Source of the DNA: a virus
Reading direction: 5' to 3' (one strand)
Virus record (IMG/VR): IMGVR_UViG_3300043446_001855
Coordinates: 7,502-71,501 of that record
DNA: 64,000 nucleotides
In this document: positions 13,741 to 43,312 of the stretch, one piece after another
Numbering within the stretch: position 1 is the first letter of the stretch
Layout: the number at the start of each line of letters is the position of its first letter
Program-made: the position numbers and the translations under genes
The notes under the pieces: generated by a model
Told to the model about the DNA's origin: nothing
What the model saw: the letters and a program-made list of their open reading frames with translations, nothing else
Databases searched by the model: none

Positions 13741-13749
13741 ATTATATCA
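13741..13749 (-). promoter_or_regulatory. extended -10 promoter TGATATAAT (leaderless glycosyltransferase mRNA)
   Basis: TGnTATAAT lies 6 nt upstream of the ATG, with no SD sequence. Confidence 0.65.
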
Positions 13750-18205: not shown

Positions 18206-18281
18206 GATGTTCTCCTAATGTGACTGCTCCAAGATCATTCTTGGATGCATGGCTATTTCTTATTATATCAAAGTACTTAAC

Positions 18282-34072: not shown

Positions 34073-35167
34073 CTAGATTATATCAAACTCATTTAAGATG
34101 ATGATAAGTTCGCTGTCCGGGTCAACTTCTTCCCAACCAGAGTCTTTTTTCACGACTTTGTCAACGAGTTTACGCATATGCTCTACTTCTTCCTCACCCT
34201 CGGCCTGCTTAGGCTTGCCCTGCATGTCACCAAGGCGGAGGGTCAGCATGTCGTACACACGCTCAGGGCTCCCCATGAGCGCTAGGAAGTCACGGGCTCC
34301 CTTCTTGTCATCAAAGTGCTCAAACATATGCGTCGTAATCATCAAACAGATCTCGGCAATGCTTTCATCGGAGAGACCGAAGCGGTCAAGGATGTCAACA
34401 GCCATCTCGCAACTGACCTTCTCATGATCGGCACCCTGTCCCTCGGGTCCTTTGCGGAAGCGAGTGATGCCGTTCTCGTCTACCCATACCGCCTTGGTCT
34501 TCCCCATGTCATGGATCAGAGCAGTCCAACGAAGGTCGGGATTGTTACTGTGCTTCGCAACATAATCAAGAGTCATCAGCAGGTGCGTGAACAACTCTGA
34601 GGATGTCTTCTTGTATCGCTGCCAGAAGCCAACTGTGTCCGCAAGTTCCGGGAAGATGTAACGCAGGATCTTAAGTTGAGAGGCGAGACGAAATGCAGCG
34701 GCAGGATTCTCTGACTCCATCACTGCCTGCATTGCTTTGCCAATCTCTTTGTCGCTGCACCCAACGAGGTTCTTACCGAACTTGGTGACATCATGCATGT
34801 CATCCTCGTCAGGGATATGTTCGTTCATCGCACGGGCAACAAGCAGGCTGAGAATGTTCGCCGGGTCTGAGAAGGGACTGTCGATGGCGGCAGTCCTCGG
34901 CTTCCTCATATGATCAGAGACGACATCGTATACCGTGTTTCGATTGCCTTGGCACTCTTGGAATCGAATGCGGTTCATGTGGTTGATGTTTCCTCGGGCA
35001 AGCAGACAAGAGTCGCTCGGTGGTGCCGCAAGATTTGCAGCCCAGCAATTGATCTCCCGCTTCAACTCGGGAGCGATCTCCTGCAAAAGCAGGAAGTGAT
35101 GTTTGTCCCCGATGTTTACACGAGGCTCCCCATTAAACGGAATTACTGCAACCCAGTTCTCAGCCAT
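34073..35167 (-). CDS. HD-domain phosphohydrolase resembling the C-terminal half of CCA-adding enzymes
   Basis: DPANIL, ILRYIFPEL, LFTHL, ALIHDMGK, HEKVS and HM motifs; no GGxVRD/DxD nucleotidyltransferase head. Confidence 0.7.
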   Translation of the reverse strand: MAENWVAVIPFNGEPRVNIGDKHHFLLLQEIAPELKREINCWAANLAAPPSDSCLLARGNINHMNRIRFQECQGNRNTVYDVVSDHMRKPRTAAIDSPFSDPANILSLLVARAMNEHIPDEDDMHDVTKFGKNLVGCSDKEIGKAMQAVMESENPAAAFRLASQLKILRYIFPELADTVGFWQRYKKTSSELFTHLLMTLDYVAKHSNNPDLRWTALIHDMGKTKAVWVDENGITRFRKGPEGQGADHEKVSCEMAVDILDRFGLSDESIAEICLMITTHMFEHFDDKKGARDFLALMGSPERVYDMLTLRLGDMQGKPKQAEGEEEVEHMRKLVDKVVKKDSGWEEVDPDSELIIILNEFDII

Positions 35168-36907: not shown

Positions 36908-37303
36908 TCAAGCGGCAAGTGTTCCGCGCCTATGCTGACGATAATGCCGGTTGCAGAAACTTCCGGCATGCATAGATTCTTCGCAGCCATCGATAGAGCA
37001 GACTCTCTTCGGAACGATGAGGACAGGACAGTCCTCACTACTGAGTGAAAAGAATTCATCGTTATCGTACTCCGGGTAGAAGTCGATAAGGCTTCGTCCA
37101 CCCTCGTTCGTGATCATCGTGTCGATGTTCTTGAAGGACATGCTTTTCGAGCGACCGGAAAGAACCTCTCTGATTCTACGATCAGAGACACCACATCTGG
37201 AGGCGAATACCTCAATCGTTTCCTGCGCCGTCTTCTCCCTCAGCCAAGGGATAAGAGGGGCGACGGGAAGATACGGTGGAATCTTCTTTCCTGTACTCAA
37301 CAT
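36908..37303 (-). CDS. HTH protein with C-terminal Zn-finger
   Basis: FASRCGVSDRRI; CSIDGC...CNRHY. Confidence 0.55.
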   Translation of the reverse strand: MLSTGKKIPPYLPVAPLIPWLREKTAQETIEVFASRCGVSDRRIREVLSGRSKSMSFKNIDTMITNEGGRSLIDFYPEYDNDEFFSLSSEDCPVLIVPKRVCSIDGCEESMHAGSFCNRHYRQHRRGTLAA

Positions 37304-37320: not shown

Positions 37321-37395
37321 GTCCGCGAGGCAGGATTCGAACCTGCGACCTAGGGATTAGAAGTCCCTCGCTCTATCCACTGAGCCACTCGCGGA
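37321..37395 (-). tRNA. tRNA-Arg(TCT), no encoded CCA
   Basis: TCCGCGA acceptor, TGGCTCAGTGGATAGAGC D arm, AGGGA-CTTCTAA-TCCCT anticodon arm, GCAGG-TTCGAAT-CCTGC T arm. Confidence 0.92.
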
Positions 37396-37400
37396 GGTAT

Positions 37401-37940
37401 CTATAGCAGGTGATCGAGATCGAGGGGACCTACCTCTTGTCCACACTTTGTGCAGAGGAAGTTGCCCTCATCATCCTGAACGATATTAACGTGACGACAG
37501 TTCGTATTCACGCCTGTCGATCCGAACCCTTCTTCGCCCCGGTCGGTCGAACCAATAAGTTCGAACGCCGAACGGAGGGTGAAGGAATCCATCTTCTGAA
37601 AAAGTATCTGAGCGATGCGGTCGTGCTTCGCTACAGGAAACTCAGAGGCGGATGCGTTATAAAGGACCACCCCGATCTCTCCACGATAGCCGGGATCGAT
37701 CAGCCCCGGACTATTCAACACGAAGACTGAGGACTTGAGCGCCAGACCGGAGCGACTCAAGATGAGAGCGAGGACATCGCTCGGCAACTGTATTGCGATC
37801 CCCGTTTTGATTAGGCGGGTCGAATACGAGGCAATGACCGCCGGCTCTGCGGCATACAAATCAAATGCGGCATCACTGTCGTGAGCCTTCTTTGGGACAA
37901 TCGCATCGGGGGTCAGTTTGCGACACGGGATATCAGTCAT
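37401..37940 (-). CDS. dut: dUTPase with C-terminal Zn-ribbon extension
   Basis: AAFDL, SRSGLA, GLIDPGYRGE, RIAQ and RGEEGFGSTG motifs. Confidence 0.95.
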   Translation of the reverse strand: MTDIPCRKLTPDAIVPKKAHDSDAAFDLYAAEPAVIASYSTRLIKTGIAIQLPSDVLALILSRSGLALKSSVFVLNSPGLIDPGYRGEIGVVLYNASASEFPVAKHDRIAQILFQKMDSFTLRSAFELIGSTDRGEEGFGSTGVNTNCRHVNIVQDDEGNFLCTKCGQEVGPLDLDHLL

Positions 37941-38241
37941 CGAGACCGATCTTCCCATCCATCTCAACGACGATGTCATCATGGAGTTGTCTAAGAAGAT
38001 CTGTATCGCCGATACAATCTCTAGCGATGTCATCAAGATCAAGGACGCACTGGATCTTGTCACGAACATCCATCAGAACAGTCATGCATGCACTGACCAT
38101 CAGTTTCTGCTGGAGAAGCGAAAGCGGATCGTCCATATCCTCGCAGCATCTTATTCCTACAATGAATGCCTCTGAGAATGCCTCGGCTAGCATCACGGAT
38201 ATGTCGGATGCGAGGGCTGCGTTGCCGCTACTCTTGTTCAT
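37933..38241 (-). CDS. hypothetical protein
   Basis: SD AAGGAG before MNKSSG. Confidence 0.45.
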   Translation of the reverse strand: MNKSSGNAALASDISVMLAEAFSEAFIVGIRCCEDMDDPLSLLQQKLMVSACMTVLMDVRDKIQCVLDLDDIARDCIGDTDLLRQLHDDIVVEMDGKIGLDD

Positions 38242-38428
38242 GGGTCTCCTTCTGACAGCAGGTGTCCGCAAGGAGCCGTGAAGCATGAAGGTAGCCGCAG
38301 TCATAGCAGCGCCAGCATTTGACAAGAGGGTAGCGATCAGACGCACAACAGAATGCGGCGTCACCGATCTCTCGGTAGAACCGTCGACATTCGCGGCACT
38401 GATATGCAGATGTCTCTCTCGCCTTCAC
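38228..38428 (-). CDS. small Cys-rich Zn-binding protein
   Basis: Two CxxC...CC units. Confidence 0.5.
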   Translation of the reverse strand: MKARETSAYQCRECRRFYREIGDAAFCCASDRYPLVKCWRCYDCGYLHASRLLADTCCQKETHEQE

Positions 38429-38473
38429 TCCACTCCTTCCGTTCGCACACAGTAGCGGAGGTCAGGGAGATGT

Positions 38474-38821
38474 TCAACTATTAAAAAATCCGCCCGCTGA
38501 AGAGTAGTCCTTGTCGTCATCCATGAACCTGTAGATGACGGAGAACTCTTCCTCTGGACCGAATGTCCAGCCAGCAGGAACGGAAAGATCTAGCGCCCAG
38601 ACTAGATCCTCAAACAAAAACTCTTTGTTGTCTTCAGATGCGAACTCGATATTCTTGTAGACATCAGAGTATCCTTCTCTTATTCTGCTATGACGAGAAG
38701 GATCTAACTCTTTGAGTATCCCATCCATCTTGGTTATCGCGTCATCGATACCGTCACTGATATCTATCACGACAACTTCGTACTTATCTCCAAAGGCTGT
38801 CACCCTAGGAGATCTCCCCAC
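38474..38821 (-). CDS. hypothetical protein
   Basis: 115 aa ORF. Confidence 0.5.
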   Translation of the reverse strand: MGRSPRVTAFGDKYEVVVIDISDGIDDAITKMDGILKELDPSRHSRIREGYSDVYKNIEFASEDNKEFLFEDLVWALDLSVPAGWTFGPEEEFSVIYRFMDDDKDYSSAGGFFNS

Positions 38822-39231
38822 TTGTACTCCTCATGCTCTTCAAAGGCATCAATCATTCCTGTCAGATTGACACACTGAGCAGGAGAGTTGACCTTCCAAG
38901 TAAACATGTTCTTATTGTACTCATCAATGTGAGCATTGATTCGGATAGGAACTAGATACGAAGCACTCTTGACTTCGATGCTAGCCCAGATCTCATACAT
39001 CTGAACATCATCCACTTCGATAACACGACGCTGAAGAACTTTGACTGGAGTATCCCAGACAGCATCCTTGATGATGTTGATGTCAACATCAAACATTCCA
39101 CCGTCATTCCAAGCGTTGTTTGCCATCTTCATGAAATCGACAAAAGTAACTGATTCAAAATCAGTTTCATTGATGTCATCAACATCAAGATACGAAAGAT
39201 TATCAAGATTGATATCGTCGTCGTAAGTCAT
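38800..39231 (-). CDS. hypothetical acidic protein
   Basis: SD AAAGGAG before MTYDDD. Confidence 0.55.
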   Translation of the reverse strand: MTYDDDINLDNLSYLDVDDINETDFESVTFVDFMKMANNAWNDGGMFDVDINIIKDAVWDTPVKVLQRRVIEVDDVQMYEIWASIEVKSASYLVPIRINAHIDEYNKNMFTWKVNSPAQCVNLTGMIDAFEEHEEYKWGDLLG

Positions 39232-39270
39232 TGCAGTCTCCTTTACTTTATGAATGACCTTGGTTGAATA

Positions 39271-39397
39271 TAGTAGCCCCGGTTCCCACCCGGCTGTTCT
39301 GGTCAGCCTGCTACCCAACGTGTCGCGCACCCACGTTAGGACCCGACCCTCTAACGGCCTACGTCCCGGATGCGAACCGGGGACTACTATTATATCA
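39271..39397 (-). ncRNA. candidate multibranch structured RNA or leader with its own promoter
   Basis: Long closing helix plus three internal hairpins; TGATATAAT at 39389-39397. Confidence 0.5.
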
Positions 39398-39401
39398 GAA
39401 T

Positions 39402-39854
39402 TTATCTCACCTCATGGTAGGGTGCCTGCGACAGCGCAACGCCTGTGCATCCCCACGCCCACACTCCGTAACGATTGATGATTCGCTGCGCTTGAATCAT
39501 CTGCTCTCTTGGTGTCGCCCTATCTGCAGTCGGAGCCATATCGGTACCAGCGATACCCTCCTCATGCCATAGCGGCTCCCATATACCCAAACCTCCGGGG
39601 AACGACCAGTTCCTACGCTGGTGCCAATCGATACCCCACATGTACTTCTTCGGCCATGACCCGTCCTTCCTACGGGCGCTAGCGGGAGCGGGTTGTTCGC
39701 ACCTGCCGATGGCTCTGAAGAATCTCCAGTTAATCACTCGCGGCTGCCTATGCTGCTTGAGAGTGCGGCTGCTGTTGTTATCCGAATGAACGATCTGAGC
39801 GGACGCTGGGGCAGCCAGAACCAGCATGACTAATATTGAAACGAGCACCTTCAC
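39402..39854 (-). CDS. secreted resuscitation-promoting factor (Rpf)-like transglycosylase
   Basis: Signal peptide ..LAAPASA; AIGRCE, GGLGI...W, ATPREQMIQAQRI and GVWAWGC match the Rpf pattern; GTG start after AGGAG. Confidence 0.8.
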   Translation of the reverse strand: MKVLVSILVMLVLAAPASAQIVHSDNNSSRTLKQHRQPRVINWRFFRAIGRCEQPAPASARRKDGSWPKKYMWGIDWHQRRNWSFPGGLGIWEPLWHEEGIAGTDMAPTADRATPREQMIQAQRIINRYGVWAWGCTGVALSQAPYHEVR

Positions 39855-40386
39855 AATATCTCCTGACACTCGGGAGTTTTTCACCCGGTCGATAGCCGGG
39901 TCCGACAGGGCCAAGAGTCTTGCGAACTCTATCTACCGTTGCCGGTGTCAAGCGGCTGGGCCTCCCGGGAAGGACGGTTATTCGCACCTTCCCTACCCAC
40001 CCCGCTGGGTTAGGCACATGCAAGTACTGTGCCACACCAATGTGTAGATCAATGTGATAATAGCAGCAAGCACCACCAATATCTGCGAGAACAGTTATGA
40101 CGGTGCGCTTGCCATATCGAACAAGGATCCGTGTTCCTCCGGGTAGGCTGCCCATGGCCGAATGATTGGCCAGTTCGGCAACTCCCCATTTGAGCCTGAA
40201 CAGGTCGATGCCACCGAAGTATCCGATCCCATTGTCGTCCCATGATGTGCCGCCGAAGGTTGTGGCGTTGACCACATACTCTCGGCCCACGACAGGACGT
40301 TCCCCATATGGGAGGGGCTTTGCGGCTTGCGCCACCCCAACCCATAGAGGGAGGACCAGCATGATTGCTAACAGGTAGCGTTTCAT
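39778..40386 (-). CDS. secreted RlpA/3D-like double-psi beta-barrel protein
   Basis: Signal peptide ..VAQA; ATTFG, LPGGTRILVRY, ADIGG and HIDL motifs. Confidence 0.7.
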   Translation of the reverse strand: MKRYLLAIMLVLPLWVGVAQAAKPLPYGERPVVGREYVVNATTFGGTSWDDNGIGYFGGIDLFRLKWGVAELANHSAMGSLPGGTRILVRYGKRTVITVLADIGGACCYYHIDLHIGVAQYLHVPNPAGWVGKVRITVLPGRPSRLTPATVDRVRKTLGPVGPGYRPGEKLPSVRRYCEGARFNISHAGSGCPSVRSDRSFG

Positions 40387-40432
40387 GACCTTGCCCTTTT
40401 CGATTAAGATTAGGGCTAGAATATAGTGAGCC

Positions 40433-42271
40433 CTAGAACTCGCCTTCGGTGAGACGACGAACCAGATCAACGAGAATGTTGTCATCACGTTCGACCCTTT
40501 CACCGTCAACAATAGCGGAGATCACCGCTCGCTTGTTGTCGATAAGCGTGGCCAGATACTCGTCAATGGTCTGGTTTGCGAGCAGGTAGTAGCAGGTCAC
40601 AGGATTCTGCTGACCGCTGCGATGACAGCGATCCTCGGCCTGATGGTGCTTGCTCGGCGTCCACGTCAACTCAAGGAATGCAACGTTGGAGCAGACATGC
40701 TGCCAACCGTCGATGCCCTCAGCAGCGGCGTCGATATTGGCGACAACGATACGAACGTTATCGTCATTGACGAAGGTATCGATTGCCTTCTGACGAGCAT
40801 CGGCACTCATGCCACCGATCACCTTGACAGCCTGATCACCGAACCGCTCGGCAAGAATGTTGACAGCCTCACGATGAATGCAGAAGACTACAATCTTCTC
40901 TTCGGAGGTGAGGAAGTCATCAAGCCAAGAGCAGGCCGCATCCATCTTGCCACGCATACAGACCTGACGAAGAGCAGACAACTTGGTGATCGTCGCAGCA
41001 GACTGGGCACGGGCAACCTTCTCGCGCATCACACGCTCGAAGACCAACTGCCTTTCGTGCACAGGCAGGAACTTAATCGCCTCAAGATATTCGGGGTCGG
41101 TCTCGATCTGCTGACGAACCCAGTAGGCAATGCTGTTGCGAACCTTGATGTACTCGTCGCGGTTGCTGATGTCGAGGGGAATCGACACGCGCTCCTTCGG
41201 CGGAAGGTCAGCAAGAACATCGTCCTTGCGCCGACGGATAAGGATGCCCGTCTTGCGGAGACGGTCGTTGAGTTCGAACAAGTTGCTGGATCCGCTGGTG
41301 TCCCAGCCGTACCCATTGTTGAACGGACGACAGTAGCGCTCGATGAACCACCAAGCCTTACGACCCTCGGTCATGTCACTCATGCGACCGATGGCCTCCA
41401 ACTGAGACACGAGTTCAATCGGACGGCTGGTGACCGGGGTACCGGACATGGCGATCCGCATGTCAGCACCCTGAGCAAGGACGACGGCGGCACGAGTGCG
41501 CTTGGCCTTGCGGCTCTTGATGAAGTGAGCCTCGTCCAGAATCACAGCACGATAACGATGGTGCTGGATACGGGTGAGCCAACTAGAGAGGATGTCGTAA
41601 TTGATAACGATGATCTTGACATCGCTCGGGATGGCCTTGGTCACACGACCGCTGCACAGGTAGATGTGCTCGTCGGGCATGTCCGGGAAGAACTTCTTGA
41701 TCTGCCGCTGCCAGCCCATCTTGACTGATGCCGGGCAGACGACAACAAGGGGCAGCGAACCGTCAGCAATGACAGCAGCCAGAGAACAGAGCGTCTTGCC
41801 GGTTCCCATCTCGTCACCGATGTAGACCCGGCGATTGCGCAGGATCCAATCGACGGCGGCTCGCTGGTAGTTGCGGAGTTCGCCGTCGAGTCCGGGGACG
41901 TAGACGGGAGGACCGTCGTGAGCCTCGGACGCAGCACGGTTAGCCGCATGCTCTTCCTTCTGCTTCTCAACAGAGTCGATGACCGTCTGGATCAGGCGCT
42001 CGGCAGACTGCGTCCGCTTGAACCCGAAGCGATCAACGATGTCCAGCATTGGATCGATGACCTCATGCTCGGCGGGAAGCACCCAAGCATTAATCATCTT
42101 TCCGTTGCGGGGGTAGTAGTTCGGGTGATACTTGACACCCTGAATGTTGGCCTTGAGTGCCCGAAGGCTGTCGTTGATCTGAGCCGCCTCAAGCGGATCA
42201 ATATCATCAACGGCGATGCCAAAGCCATTGCCATTCTTCAGAGCACCGAAGTGCTTAAAGGGCCTAGACAC
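40433..42271 (-). CDS. SNF2-family (SMARCAL1-like) helicase/ATPase
   Basis: DEMGTGKT, DEAH, SGTP, RRRK and QAEDRCHRSGQ motifs. Confidence 0.92.
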   Translation of the reverse strand: MSRPFKHFGALKNGNGFGIAVDDIDPLEAAQINDSLRALKANIQGVKYHPNYYPRNGKMINAWVLPAEHEVIDPMLDIVDRFGFKRTQSAERLIQTVIDSVEKQKEEHAANRAASEAHDGPPVYVPGLDGELRNYQRAAVDWILRNRRVYIGDEMGTGKTLCSLAAVIADGSLPLVVVCPASVKMGWQRQIKKFFPDMPDEHIYLCSGRVTKAIPSDVKIIVINYDILSSWLTRIQHHRYRAVILDEAHFIKSRKAKRTRAAVVLAQGADMRIAMSGTPVTSRPIELVSQLEAIGRMSDMTEGRKAWWFIERYCRPFNNGYGWDTSGSSNLFELNDRLRKTGILIRRRKDDVLADLPPKERVSIPLDISNRDEYIKVRNSIAYWVRQQIETDPEYLEAIKFLPVHERQLVFERVMREKVARAQSAATITKLSALRQVCMRGKMDAACSWLDDFLTSEEKIVVFCIHREAVNILAERFGDQAVKVIGGMSADARQKAIDTFVNDDNVRIVVANIDAAAEGIDGWQHVCSNVAFLELTWTPSKHHQAEDRCHRSGQQNPVTCYYLLANQTIDEYLATLIDNKRAVISAIVDGERVERDDNILVDLVRRLTEGEF

Positions 42272-43197: not shown

Positions 43198-43198
43198 A

Positions 43199-43270
43199 TA
43201 GCCCGTCGGAGAATCGAACTCCGCTTACCGCCGTGAAAGGGCGGCGTCCTAACCGATAGACGAACGGGCC
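43199..43270 (-). tRNA. tRNA-Glu(TTC), no encoded CCA
   Basis: GGCCCGT/ACGGGCT acceptor, CCGCC-CTTTCAC-GGCGG anticodon arm, TTCGATT loop. Confidence 0.92.
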
Positions 43271-43312
43271 AAGGGGGCTGGCGACCCGTAAGCCACCAGC
43301 CCCCGTATTTTA

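Follow-up and report, generated by a model that had tools for sequence, protein, structure and literature searches.

A GC-rich RNA element of 109 nt, encoded on the minus strand (39384-39276), stands directly behind a promoter motif in the genome of an uncultured freshwater phage. The positions are those of the window, the 64,000-nt stretch of DNA that was analyzed, which belongs to an uncultured freshwater virus record of 71.5 kb scored as 45% complete. The element is a conserved, non-coding, structured RNA that falls into no catalogued family, and it has so far been seen only in three related uncultured freshwater phages. The reading that we favor, tentatively and at somewhat below an even chance, is that it constitutes a phage-specific, cis-encoded 5' leader domain that is recognized by some macromolecule.

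The consensus fold of the three sequences, calculated with RNAalifold, is a four-helix junction in which a long closing helix, P1, surrounds the hairpins P2, P3 and P4 (Table 1). A preliminary description of this DNA had proposed a multibranch RNA of about 110 nt and had listed on the minus strand the box TGATATAAT, a closing helix, and hairpins GGAC/GTCC, TAACGTG/CACGTTG and GGCTG/CAGCC. All of these are present, and the size and the branched form agree with the 109 nt and four helices found here; the additions are the hairpin GGCC/GGUC and an outer extension of P1, AGUAG/CUACU. With the outer stem counted, the full duplex in the window comprises 5-7 + 9 + 5-7 bp, or 21-23 bp, interrupted by one bulge and one mismatch, and without it P1 still has at least 16 bp and is GC-rich. 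The outer stem of the homologue L009 has only 4 bp. The element had also been described as a GC-rich island with AT-rich flanks, which holds for the island itself (GC fraction 0.59 at 39250-39399) and for the downstream side (0.34-0.44) but not for the upstream coding flank, at 0.54-0.55.

Table 1. Coordinates of the element and of the features that adjoin it, as positions in the window
Feature	Positions	Strand	Remarks
Extended -10 box TGATATAAT (TGnTATAAT), perfect	39389..39397	-	Homologues carry counterparts at the same place
Outer P1 extension, 5' strand AGUAG plus bulged U (39383)	39383..39388	-	Partner is CUACU, 39272-39276
P1 5' strand: CCCCGGUUC (39382-39374), G, CAUCC(GG) (39372-39366)	39366..39382	-	
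P1 3' strand: (CC)GGGUG (39293-39287), G, GAACCGGGG (39285-39277); outer CUACU 39276-39272	39272..39291	-	
P2 lower stem GGGAC/GUCCU (39367-39363 / 39342-39338), internal loop GUA/GG	39338..39367	-	
P2 upper stem GGCC/GGUC (39359-39356 / 39348-39345), loop GUUAGAG		-	
P3 hairpin AACGUG (39337-39332), loop GGUGCGCGA, CACGUU (39322-39317)	39317..39337	-	Sequence variable
J3/4 junction GGGUAGCA, 8 nt	39309..39316	-	Unpaired; holds the conserved GGUAG
P4 hairpin GGCUG (39308-39304), loop ACCAGAA, CAGCC (39296-39292)	39292..39308	-	
A/U-rich linker with Shine-Dalgarno AAGGAG (39243-39238)	39232..39271	-	Unconserved; without a terminator
First gene of the unit, encoding an acidic 143-aa orphan protein	38800..39231	-	AT-rich stretch; ATG at 39231

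The fold is considerably stronger than its base composition would predict. The minimum free energy (MFE) of a 151-nt region around the element is -68.4 kcal/mol, as compared to -48.6 +/- 4.0 kcal/mol for 200 dinucleotide shuffles (z = -4.94), none of which folded as well, and the corresponding elements of the three phages (125-129 nt) gave z values of -5.5, -3.6 and -5.5. An independent search of the window for inverted repeats also recovered the P1 repeat. The sense strand is the more stable one in all three phages, by 5.6-17 kcal/mol (sense versus antisense MFE of -65.8/-48.7, -56.1/-50.5 and -69.6/-60.3 kcal/mol), and P1 contains an invariant U-G pair; together, these properties favor an RNA with the polarity of the genes over a palindrome that functions as DNA.

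The interior of the fold is more ambiguous than its closing helix. The MFE structure of each single sequence lacks P4 in all three cases and P2 as well in the window and L009, and the consensus fold lies 1.7-4.5 kcal/mol above the MFE. All three sequences also allow a rival helix, CGUAGR with YCUA..CG, in differing registers; the resulting fold is 4-5 kcal/mol worse in two of them and nearly equal in the third, L011 (-54.5 versus -54.7 kcal/mol), and a second state that contains this helix is possible. The P3 region of L011 can also form a different, more stable hairpin. This ambiguity, and the small sample of three independent sequences and one near-identical strain, count against the reading as a leader domain. 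The element does behave as an autonomous domain, in that the linker and the Shine-Dalgarno sequence are unpaired with it in the MFE folds of all three leaders.

Pattern and synteny searches of viral contigs, metagenomes and genomes uncovered two real homologues of the RNA. Each resides on a single contig that carries several labels (L009, L010 and L035 for the first; L011, L012, L030 and L036 for the second). The other pattern matches were taken as chance, most of them in high-GC unrelated coding DNA: 7 of 8 and 1 of 3 in viral contigs, 20 of 21 in metagenomes and 11 of 11 in genomes, the twenty-first metagenome match being the same contig as L011. The genome matches bore no likeness to the RNA beyond the pattern itself. 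The window, L009 and L011 are collinear, with an SNF2 helicase gene, a transglycosylase-like ORF, the promoter box, the RNA and the acidic ORF in the same order. The helicase of the window is 65% and 62% identical to those of the two relatives, and its relatives in the phage collection are at most 34% identical. A covariance model built from the three sequences found exactly one copy in each record (145.5, 137.8 and 129.1 bits), and a sample of 151 Actinomycetota genomes yielded no match at E<=0.01; a lone 24-bit match (E 0.07) in one of two MAGs was taken as noise. Near-identical DNA is present in freshwater metagenome runs of several studies. The region 38400-40600 has no DNA match among 50,697 phage records (blastn, distant setting), and tblastn searches of the phage collection with the downstream acidic protein and with a relative, P0017, found no match. 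Some relatives of the acidic protein sit on long contigs elsewhere, and the RNA family may exceed its three known members.

The ORF upstream of the promoter had been called an Rpf gene. Its match to PF06737 (Transglycosylase-like; E 3.7e-5, 24.7 bits) scores below the 27-bit cut-off, and the name is a weak one. A small ORF for a single-pass membrane peptide (635-730 of L009) is found in L009 between the transglycosylase-like gene and the module of promoter and RNA; the module itself is unchanged.

Sequence conservation across the locus is sharply focused on the RNA. When the window is compared with L035 in 60-nt segments, identity reaches 0.83-0.95 in the RNA but 0.23-0.47 in the spacers to both sides and 0.35-0.62 in the gene that follows, and comparison with the more distant L036 reveals the same peak over the 5' half of the RNA (0.81-0.90). 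The peak stops exactly at the ends of the element. At the protein level, the upstream transglycosylase-like protein is 70% identical to that of L009 (92/131) and the acidic downstream protein 32% (39/123). A further strain, about 97% identical to the window, is represented by contigs of four runs from four studies; along 1168 nt of the longest contig there are 36 differences. Within the RNA this strain differs only at 39299-39300, where the P4 loop changes from ACCAGAA to ACCGUAA; the same loop reads ACCAUAA in L009. In two of the runs the strain diverges from about 39867 onward, inside the overlap of ORFs 39402-39914 and 39778-40512, which points to a putative mosaic breakpoint.

Changes within the element largely preserve its base pairs. 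In a MAFFT alignment of the three sequences (39 pairs, 117 cells), 95.7% of the cells are standard pairs and 5 of the 39 pairs have changed on both sides, a result as high as which was obtained in 1-2 of 500 column shuffles. When the 3' partners were slid by 1-3 columns as a control, pairing dropped to 31-49%, with 0-1 compensatory pairs. Because the data consist of three sequences and one near-identical strain, this covariation is suggestive rather than statistical, and the relatedness of the sequences tempers the shuffle controls. The proposal of a structured RNA has thus come through the covariation check that was suggested along with it, at the level of suggestive evidence.

The changes are unevenly spread over the helices. 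In P1, 15 of 19 pairs are invariant, and the 3' strand is identical in all three sequences except for the middle pair of the outer extension (columns 7/122), which is U-A in the window, A-U in L009 and G-C in L011. On the 5' strand of P1, UUC is replaced by UCA in L011, so that two pairs are lost and the mismatch becomes a 3x3 loop opposite an unchanged 3' strand. The upper stem of P2 is paired in 100% of cells (with a change from G-U to A-U) and the lower stem in 86.7%, there being two mismatches in L009; the P2 loop is conserved as GUYAGAK. All six pairs of P3 are maintained in 100% of cells, two of them with changes on both sides, and two of the five pairs of P4 have likewise changed on both sides (GGCUG/CAGCC versus GGCAA/UUGCC in L011). 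Several nucleotides are invariant beyond what pairing explains, namely the bulged U of P1, the CGUAG stretch in J1/2, and the P2 loop, and this conservation beyond the needs of pairing suggests recognition by a macromolecule. A coding explanation for the conservation was rejected: a single frame stays open in both the window and L011, and in L009 it is broken by a stop and a frameshift; the peptides that the variable segments would encode are unrelated, and the conserved part shows no differences at any codon position.

The element matches none of the known RNA families that were searched. These comprised riboswitches, ribozymes, sRNAs, tRNA, tmRNA, SRP, RNase P, 6S and Y-like RNAs, to the extent that Rfam includes them. 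Rfam 15 at the gathering score found two matches in the 64 kb, both of them tRNAs elsewhere; with the threshold relaxed to E<=10, there were six matches in 38900-39800, none overlapping 39271-39397, and four in the three homologous loci, all of them away from the RNA. ARAGORN found only tRNA-Arg (37321-37394) and tRNA-Glu (43198-43271) in the window and nothing at the element, and the Phage_pRNA covariance model (RF00044) had no match in any of the three records at E<=10. These results bear out the initial failure to match the element to tRNA, SRP, RNase P or the ydaO riboswitch, and since an Rfam scan had been named beforehand as a possible refutation, the novelty of the RNA stands. Two other resemblances were considered and dropped. 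The 5' arm of P1 (GGUUCGCAUCC) resembles a tRNA T arm, which raised a tRNA-like or attP-core reading, but what remains of the element does not fit a cloverleaf, L011 has lost the T-arm-like string (GGUCAGCAUCC), and an integrase context was not seen. A likeness to the hairpin ribozyme (ACACGUUG.GGUA) found no support in Rfam.

The extended -10 box in front of the element is a credible promoter. The upstream ORF (39402-39914) ends in TAA (39404-39402), the TGATATAAT box begins four bases farther on, and the RNA element begins within 6 nt after the box; the distance from the end of the box to P1 is 6-8 nt in all three phages. The motif TGNTATAAT occurs four times in the window versus 0.92 expected (3 of 100 shuffles reach four), and all four copies are TGATATAAT on the minus strand, which is the coding strand. 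The other three boxes lie at 13741-13749, 18262-18270 and 34077-34085. Two of them stand 6-7 nt before the ATG of a plausible protein (GCAGCC-ATG and CTAGGCC-ATG), which suggests that these messages may be leaderless; the remaining one, at 18262, stands behind a canonical terminator, and its leader measures about 55 nt. The letters GCC precede the ATG at all three of these other promoters. From the four coding-strand copies, two of them close to an ATG, it would appear that the phage uses host-type extended -10 promoters, in part for leaderless messages, and that the box at 39397-39389 is one of these promoters. The boxes of the homologues, TGCTACAAT in L009 and TGGTATAAT in L011, differ from TGATATAAT only at non-consensus positions. 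The earlier suggestion that the RNA is promoter-driven is thus credible from the motif count, its strand, and the presence of an own box in both homologues. The RNA element itself is found at only one of the four TGATATAAT promoters. Leaderless starts and the transglycosylase-like domain upstream together suggest that the host might be actinobacterial.

Transcription from this promoter is predicted to start 5-8 nt past the box, at about 39384-39381, which puts the first base at, or no more than about 2 nt from, the foot of P1. Since most of the outer P1 stem precedes this predicted start, the stem could arise only in read-through RNA or at the DNA level. No terminator follows the element, either among the minus-strand terminator-like sites of the window or in L009 and L011; the 3' tails in the three phages (CUACUAUAUUC, CUUCUGUACUUUCUUUU and CUCCUAACUAACC) contain no hairpin with a U run. 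Because the phage does have canonical terminators, their absence behind the element argues that the RNA starts out as the 5' end of a transcription unit about 4 kb long. An intrinsic terminator with an 11-bp stem (9 GC pairs) followed by TTTTTATT lies on the minus strand at 35224-35199, about 4.2 kb downstream, and probably ends the transcription unit that the RNA would head; genes on the same strand continue past it. The unit contains the orphan acidic gene, further small ORFs, a dUTPase gene and the gene for tRNA-Arg. Between the last P1 pair and the ATG there are about 40 nt in the window, about 80 nt in L009 and about 45 nt in L011.

The first gene of the unit, whose product is an orphan, provides no clue to the role of the RNA. 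The acidic protein has no match in Pfam, PHROG or PADLOC, and its family has none in 401 sampled genomes; relatives do occur in Logan, ENA and JGI assemblies. A word search found four proteins of the family, and a search of 1.84 billion representatives gave ten clusters at E<=0.001, of which one is a weak match in a long protein. An AlphaFold (AF2) model built from a five-sequence alignment has a mean pLDDT of 81.4. Foldseek found nothing for this model at E<=0.001, and the best Z of VIA, 4.9 for small beta-barrels such as EF-P domain I, is under the noise level stated for the tool. Relatives P0006 and P0011 both report a longest contig of 39,268, and P0008 and P0012 both report 2,583, which suggests that some phages carry two diverged copies of the acidic protein gene on one contig. 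The two genes directly behind the RNA (38474-39231) are both orphans with a GC content of 0.34-0.48, in surroundings of about 0.55, and the same gene pair follows the RNA in L009 and L011.

As a 5'-terminal leader domain, the element could operate as follows. Transcription would start at the base of P1 from the host-type extended -10 promoter, the first 109 nt or so would fold into the P1-P4 junction, and the polymerase would continue into the acidic gene and the rest of the roughly 4-kb unit. P1 would bury, and may thereby protect, the 5' end of the message. The invariant parts of P1 (its bulged U and internal loop), CGUAG in J1/2 and the P2 loop would then present a docking surface for a partner, for which the host RNA polymerase, a ribonuclease or a phage protein are candidates. 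With the element acting presumably in cis, this partner would set the fate of the early message, that is, its stability, its processing out of read-through RNA, or its elongation. Two features fit the leader domain less well. A plain 5' stabilizer would not need 110 nt of conserved sequence, and the covarying outer stem upstream of the predicted start is unexplained if the RNA is made only from the local promoter.

The outer stem finds a readier explanation if the element is instead a discrete, stable phage RNA that acts in trans, released from the primary transcript by a cut on the 3' side of P1, and from read-through RNA at the extended P1. It would serve a host or phage protein as decoy, scaffold or sponge, and the downstream gene would merely share its promoter. 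This is the close rival of the leader domain, though we consider it somewhat unlikely. A long helix that joins the 5' and 3' ends is a hallmark of stable RNAs, and P1 does pair both ends; furthermore, the outer stem covaries past the mature ends in the manner of processing stems (columns 7/122), the sequence is conserved well past the needs of pairing, and the linker that separates P1 from the ATG ranges from about 40 to 80 nt, is A/U-rich and is neither conserved nor structured. There is a general likeness to the pRNA of phi29-type phages, an RNA of about 120 nt whose paired ends form a long bulged helix that closes a multi-helix center with hairpin loops. The element shares the long bulged helix between its ends and the multi-helix center, but differs in having no RF00044 match, in belonging to large genomes (71.5 kb being 45% of one), and in continuing into an mRNA. 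Against a trans-acting RNA, the three loci have no terminator or conserved 3'-end signal, and the same gene family is directly downstream in all three; this linkage weighs little, however, since the three genomes are collinear throughout. Leader and small RNA are inseparable on present data, and the missing terminator shows only that the RNA is initially synthesized as an mRNA 5' end. The preliminary description had offered precisely these two alternatives, a novel sRNA or a structured leader, and the pair is supported by the lack of an Rfam family, the compensatory changes, and the own box and homologous ORF in two relatives. A processing role could coexist with either one. In T7 early transcripts RNase III cuts at intergenic stems, and bacterial mRNAs can carry 5'-terminal stabilizing stem-loops. 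If the extended P1 were an RNase III-type processing and insulating site, its cleavage in read-through RNA would part the upstream and downstream messages and leave protective hairpins behind. The long imperfect duplex between genes, the burial of the 5' end in a helix, and the covarying outer stem, which includes bases upstream of the local start, all fit this idea, as does the fact that no terminator separates the element from the upstream ORF (stop at 39402). The T7 stems and 5' stabilizers are simple hairpins, however, with neither a branched, conserved interior nor an own promoter. A near-continuous duplex of about two helical turns is all that RNase III would need, so that the conserved and covarying P2-P4 and the promoter are left unexplained, and L009 has an outer stem of only 4 bp; as the main function of the element, RNase III-type processing is improbable.

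The leader position, the multi-helix junction and the conserved junction and loop nucleotides are also reminiscent of junction riboswitches, including ydaO, and the two L011 folds of similar energy could serve a switch. Several points nonetheless argue against a classical riboswitch: P1 is far too long and stable for displacement, no terminator or conserved expression platform is present, the Shine-Dalgarno sequence is free in all three leaders, the linker is variable and unconserved, no riboswitch family matches in Rfam, and the genes that would be regulated are orphans of no known function. A related idea is an antitermination RNA that modifies RNA polymerase, like the put RNAs, and we regard an aptamer or put-like control of the early unit, taken together, as improbable, on a par with the processing site. 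HK022 putL directly follows an early phage promoter, and its effect extends over 10 kb or more; put RNAs are V-shaped molecules of about 70 nt with two stem-loops that suppress termination by way of the zinc-binding domain of the RNA polymerase beta' subunit (PMC9378689). Like put as described there, the element is a structured phage RNA right behind a promoter and co-transcribed with an operon ("early" being a designation taken here from the host-type promoter), its sequence is conserved, which in put reflects docking on RNA polymerase, and the strong terminator 4.2 kb downstream has same-strand genes beyond it. In architecture, however, the element departs from put as that source portrays it (PMC9378689): it measures about 109 nt instead of about 70, and four helices meet in a junction, P1 alone reaching at least 16 bp, where put has two stem-loops. 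The restriction of the element to a single TGATATAAT promoter also speaks against this role. Less probable than any of these is an element that functions as DNA (an inverted-repeat binding site, a cruciform or an origin-like structure), or one without function that appears conserved because of recent exchange between phages. The invariant P1 arms and the overlap of the outer stem with the promoter would fit a DNA element, and the window and L035 do share other blocks of high identity (e.g. 0.85-0.97 at about 39950-40040), as exchange would produce. Strand stability is asymmetric in all three phages, however, and G-U pairs, one of them invariant, would be A-C mismatches on the other strand; the interior hairpins show compensatory changes, and the identity peak stops where the element does and recurs against the more distant L036.

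To our knowledge, structured phage RNAs are few but instructive, with pRNA, put and the self-cleaving ribozymes as examples. The element is a new family of a familiar kind, a phage leader or small RNA, with three known members. It amounts to a compact module of promoter and four-way junction at the head of a set of orphan genes, in a lineage without cultured relatives, and purifying selection acts on it more strongly than on the surrounding proteins. Binding to RNA polymerase, to a ribonuclease or to a defense protein would make it a new RNA-based means of controlling or protecting phage early transcripts; if it is merely a stabilizing or processing leader, it would be a modest addition to the catalogue of RNA motifs. 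A more far-reaching but unlikely possibility is that it is the first member of a new functional class of RNA in phages of hosts with leaderless mRNAs, binding a host machine while still nascent. It could then act on RNA polymerase as a put-like processive antiterminator made of RNA alone, or else block decay that depends on the 5' end, and in either case the early unit would be switched on without any phage protein. A self-cleaving ribozyme or a ligand sensor is a less likely variant of such a new class. The small size and well-defined sequence of the element lend themselves to direct in vitro work.

Some other features of the neighborhood deserve mention. Both tRNA genes of the window are on the minus strand, that for tRNA-Arg (anticodon TCT), which lies within the unit, and that for tRNA-Glu (TTC). 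ORF 36908-37303, which adjoins the tRNA-Arg gene, has a weak match to HNH endonucleases. The dUTPase ORF (37401-38069, minus strand) has, as listed, an N-terminal extension of about 50 aa, and its C-terminal tail is zinc-ribbon-like (PF08271, E 0.0011, below the cut-off). A match to the sRNA NsiR9 at 39072-39189 scored 24.3 bits against a gathering score of 90 and was taken as chance; the same minus-strand segment, which lies inside the acidic ORF, contains a 17-nt inverted repeat that is 88% complementary.
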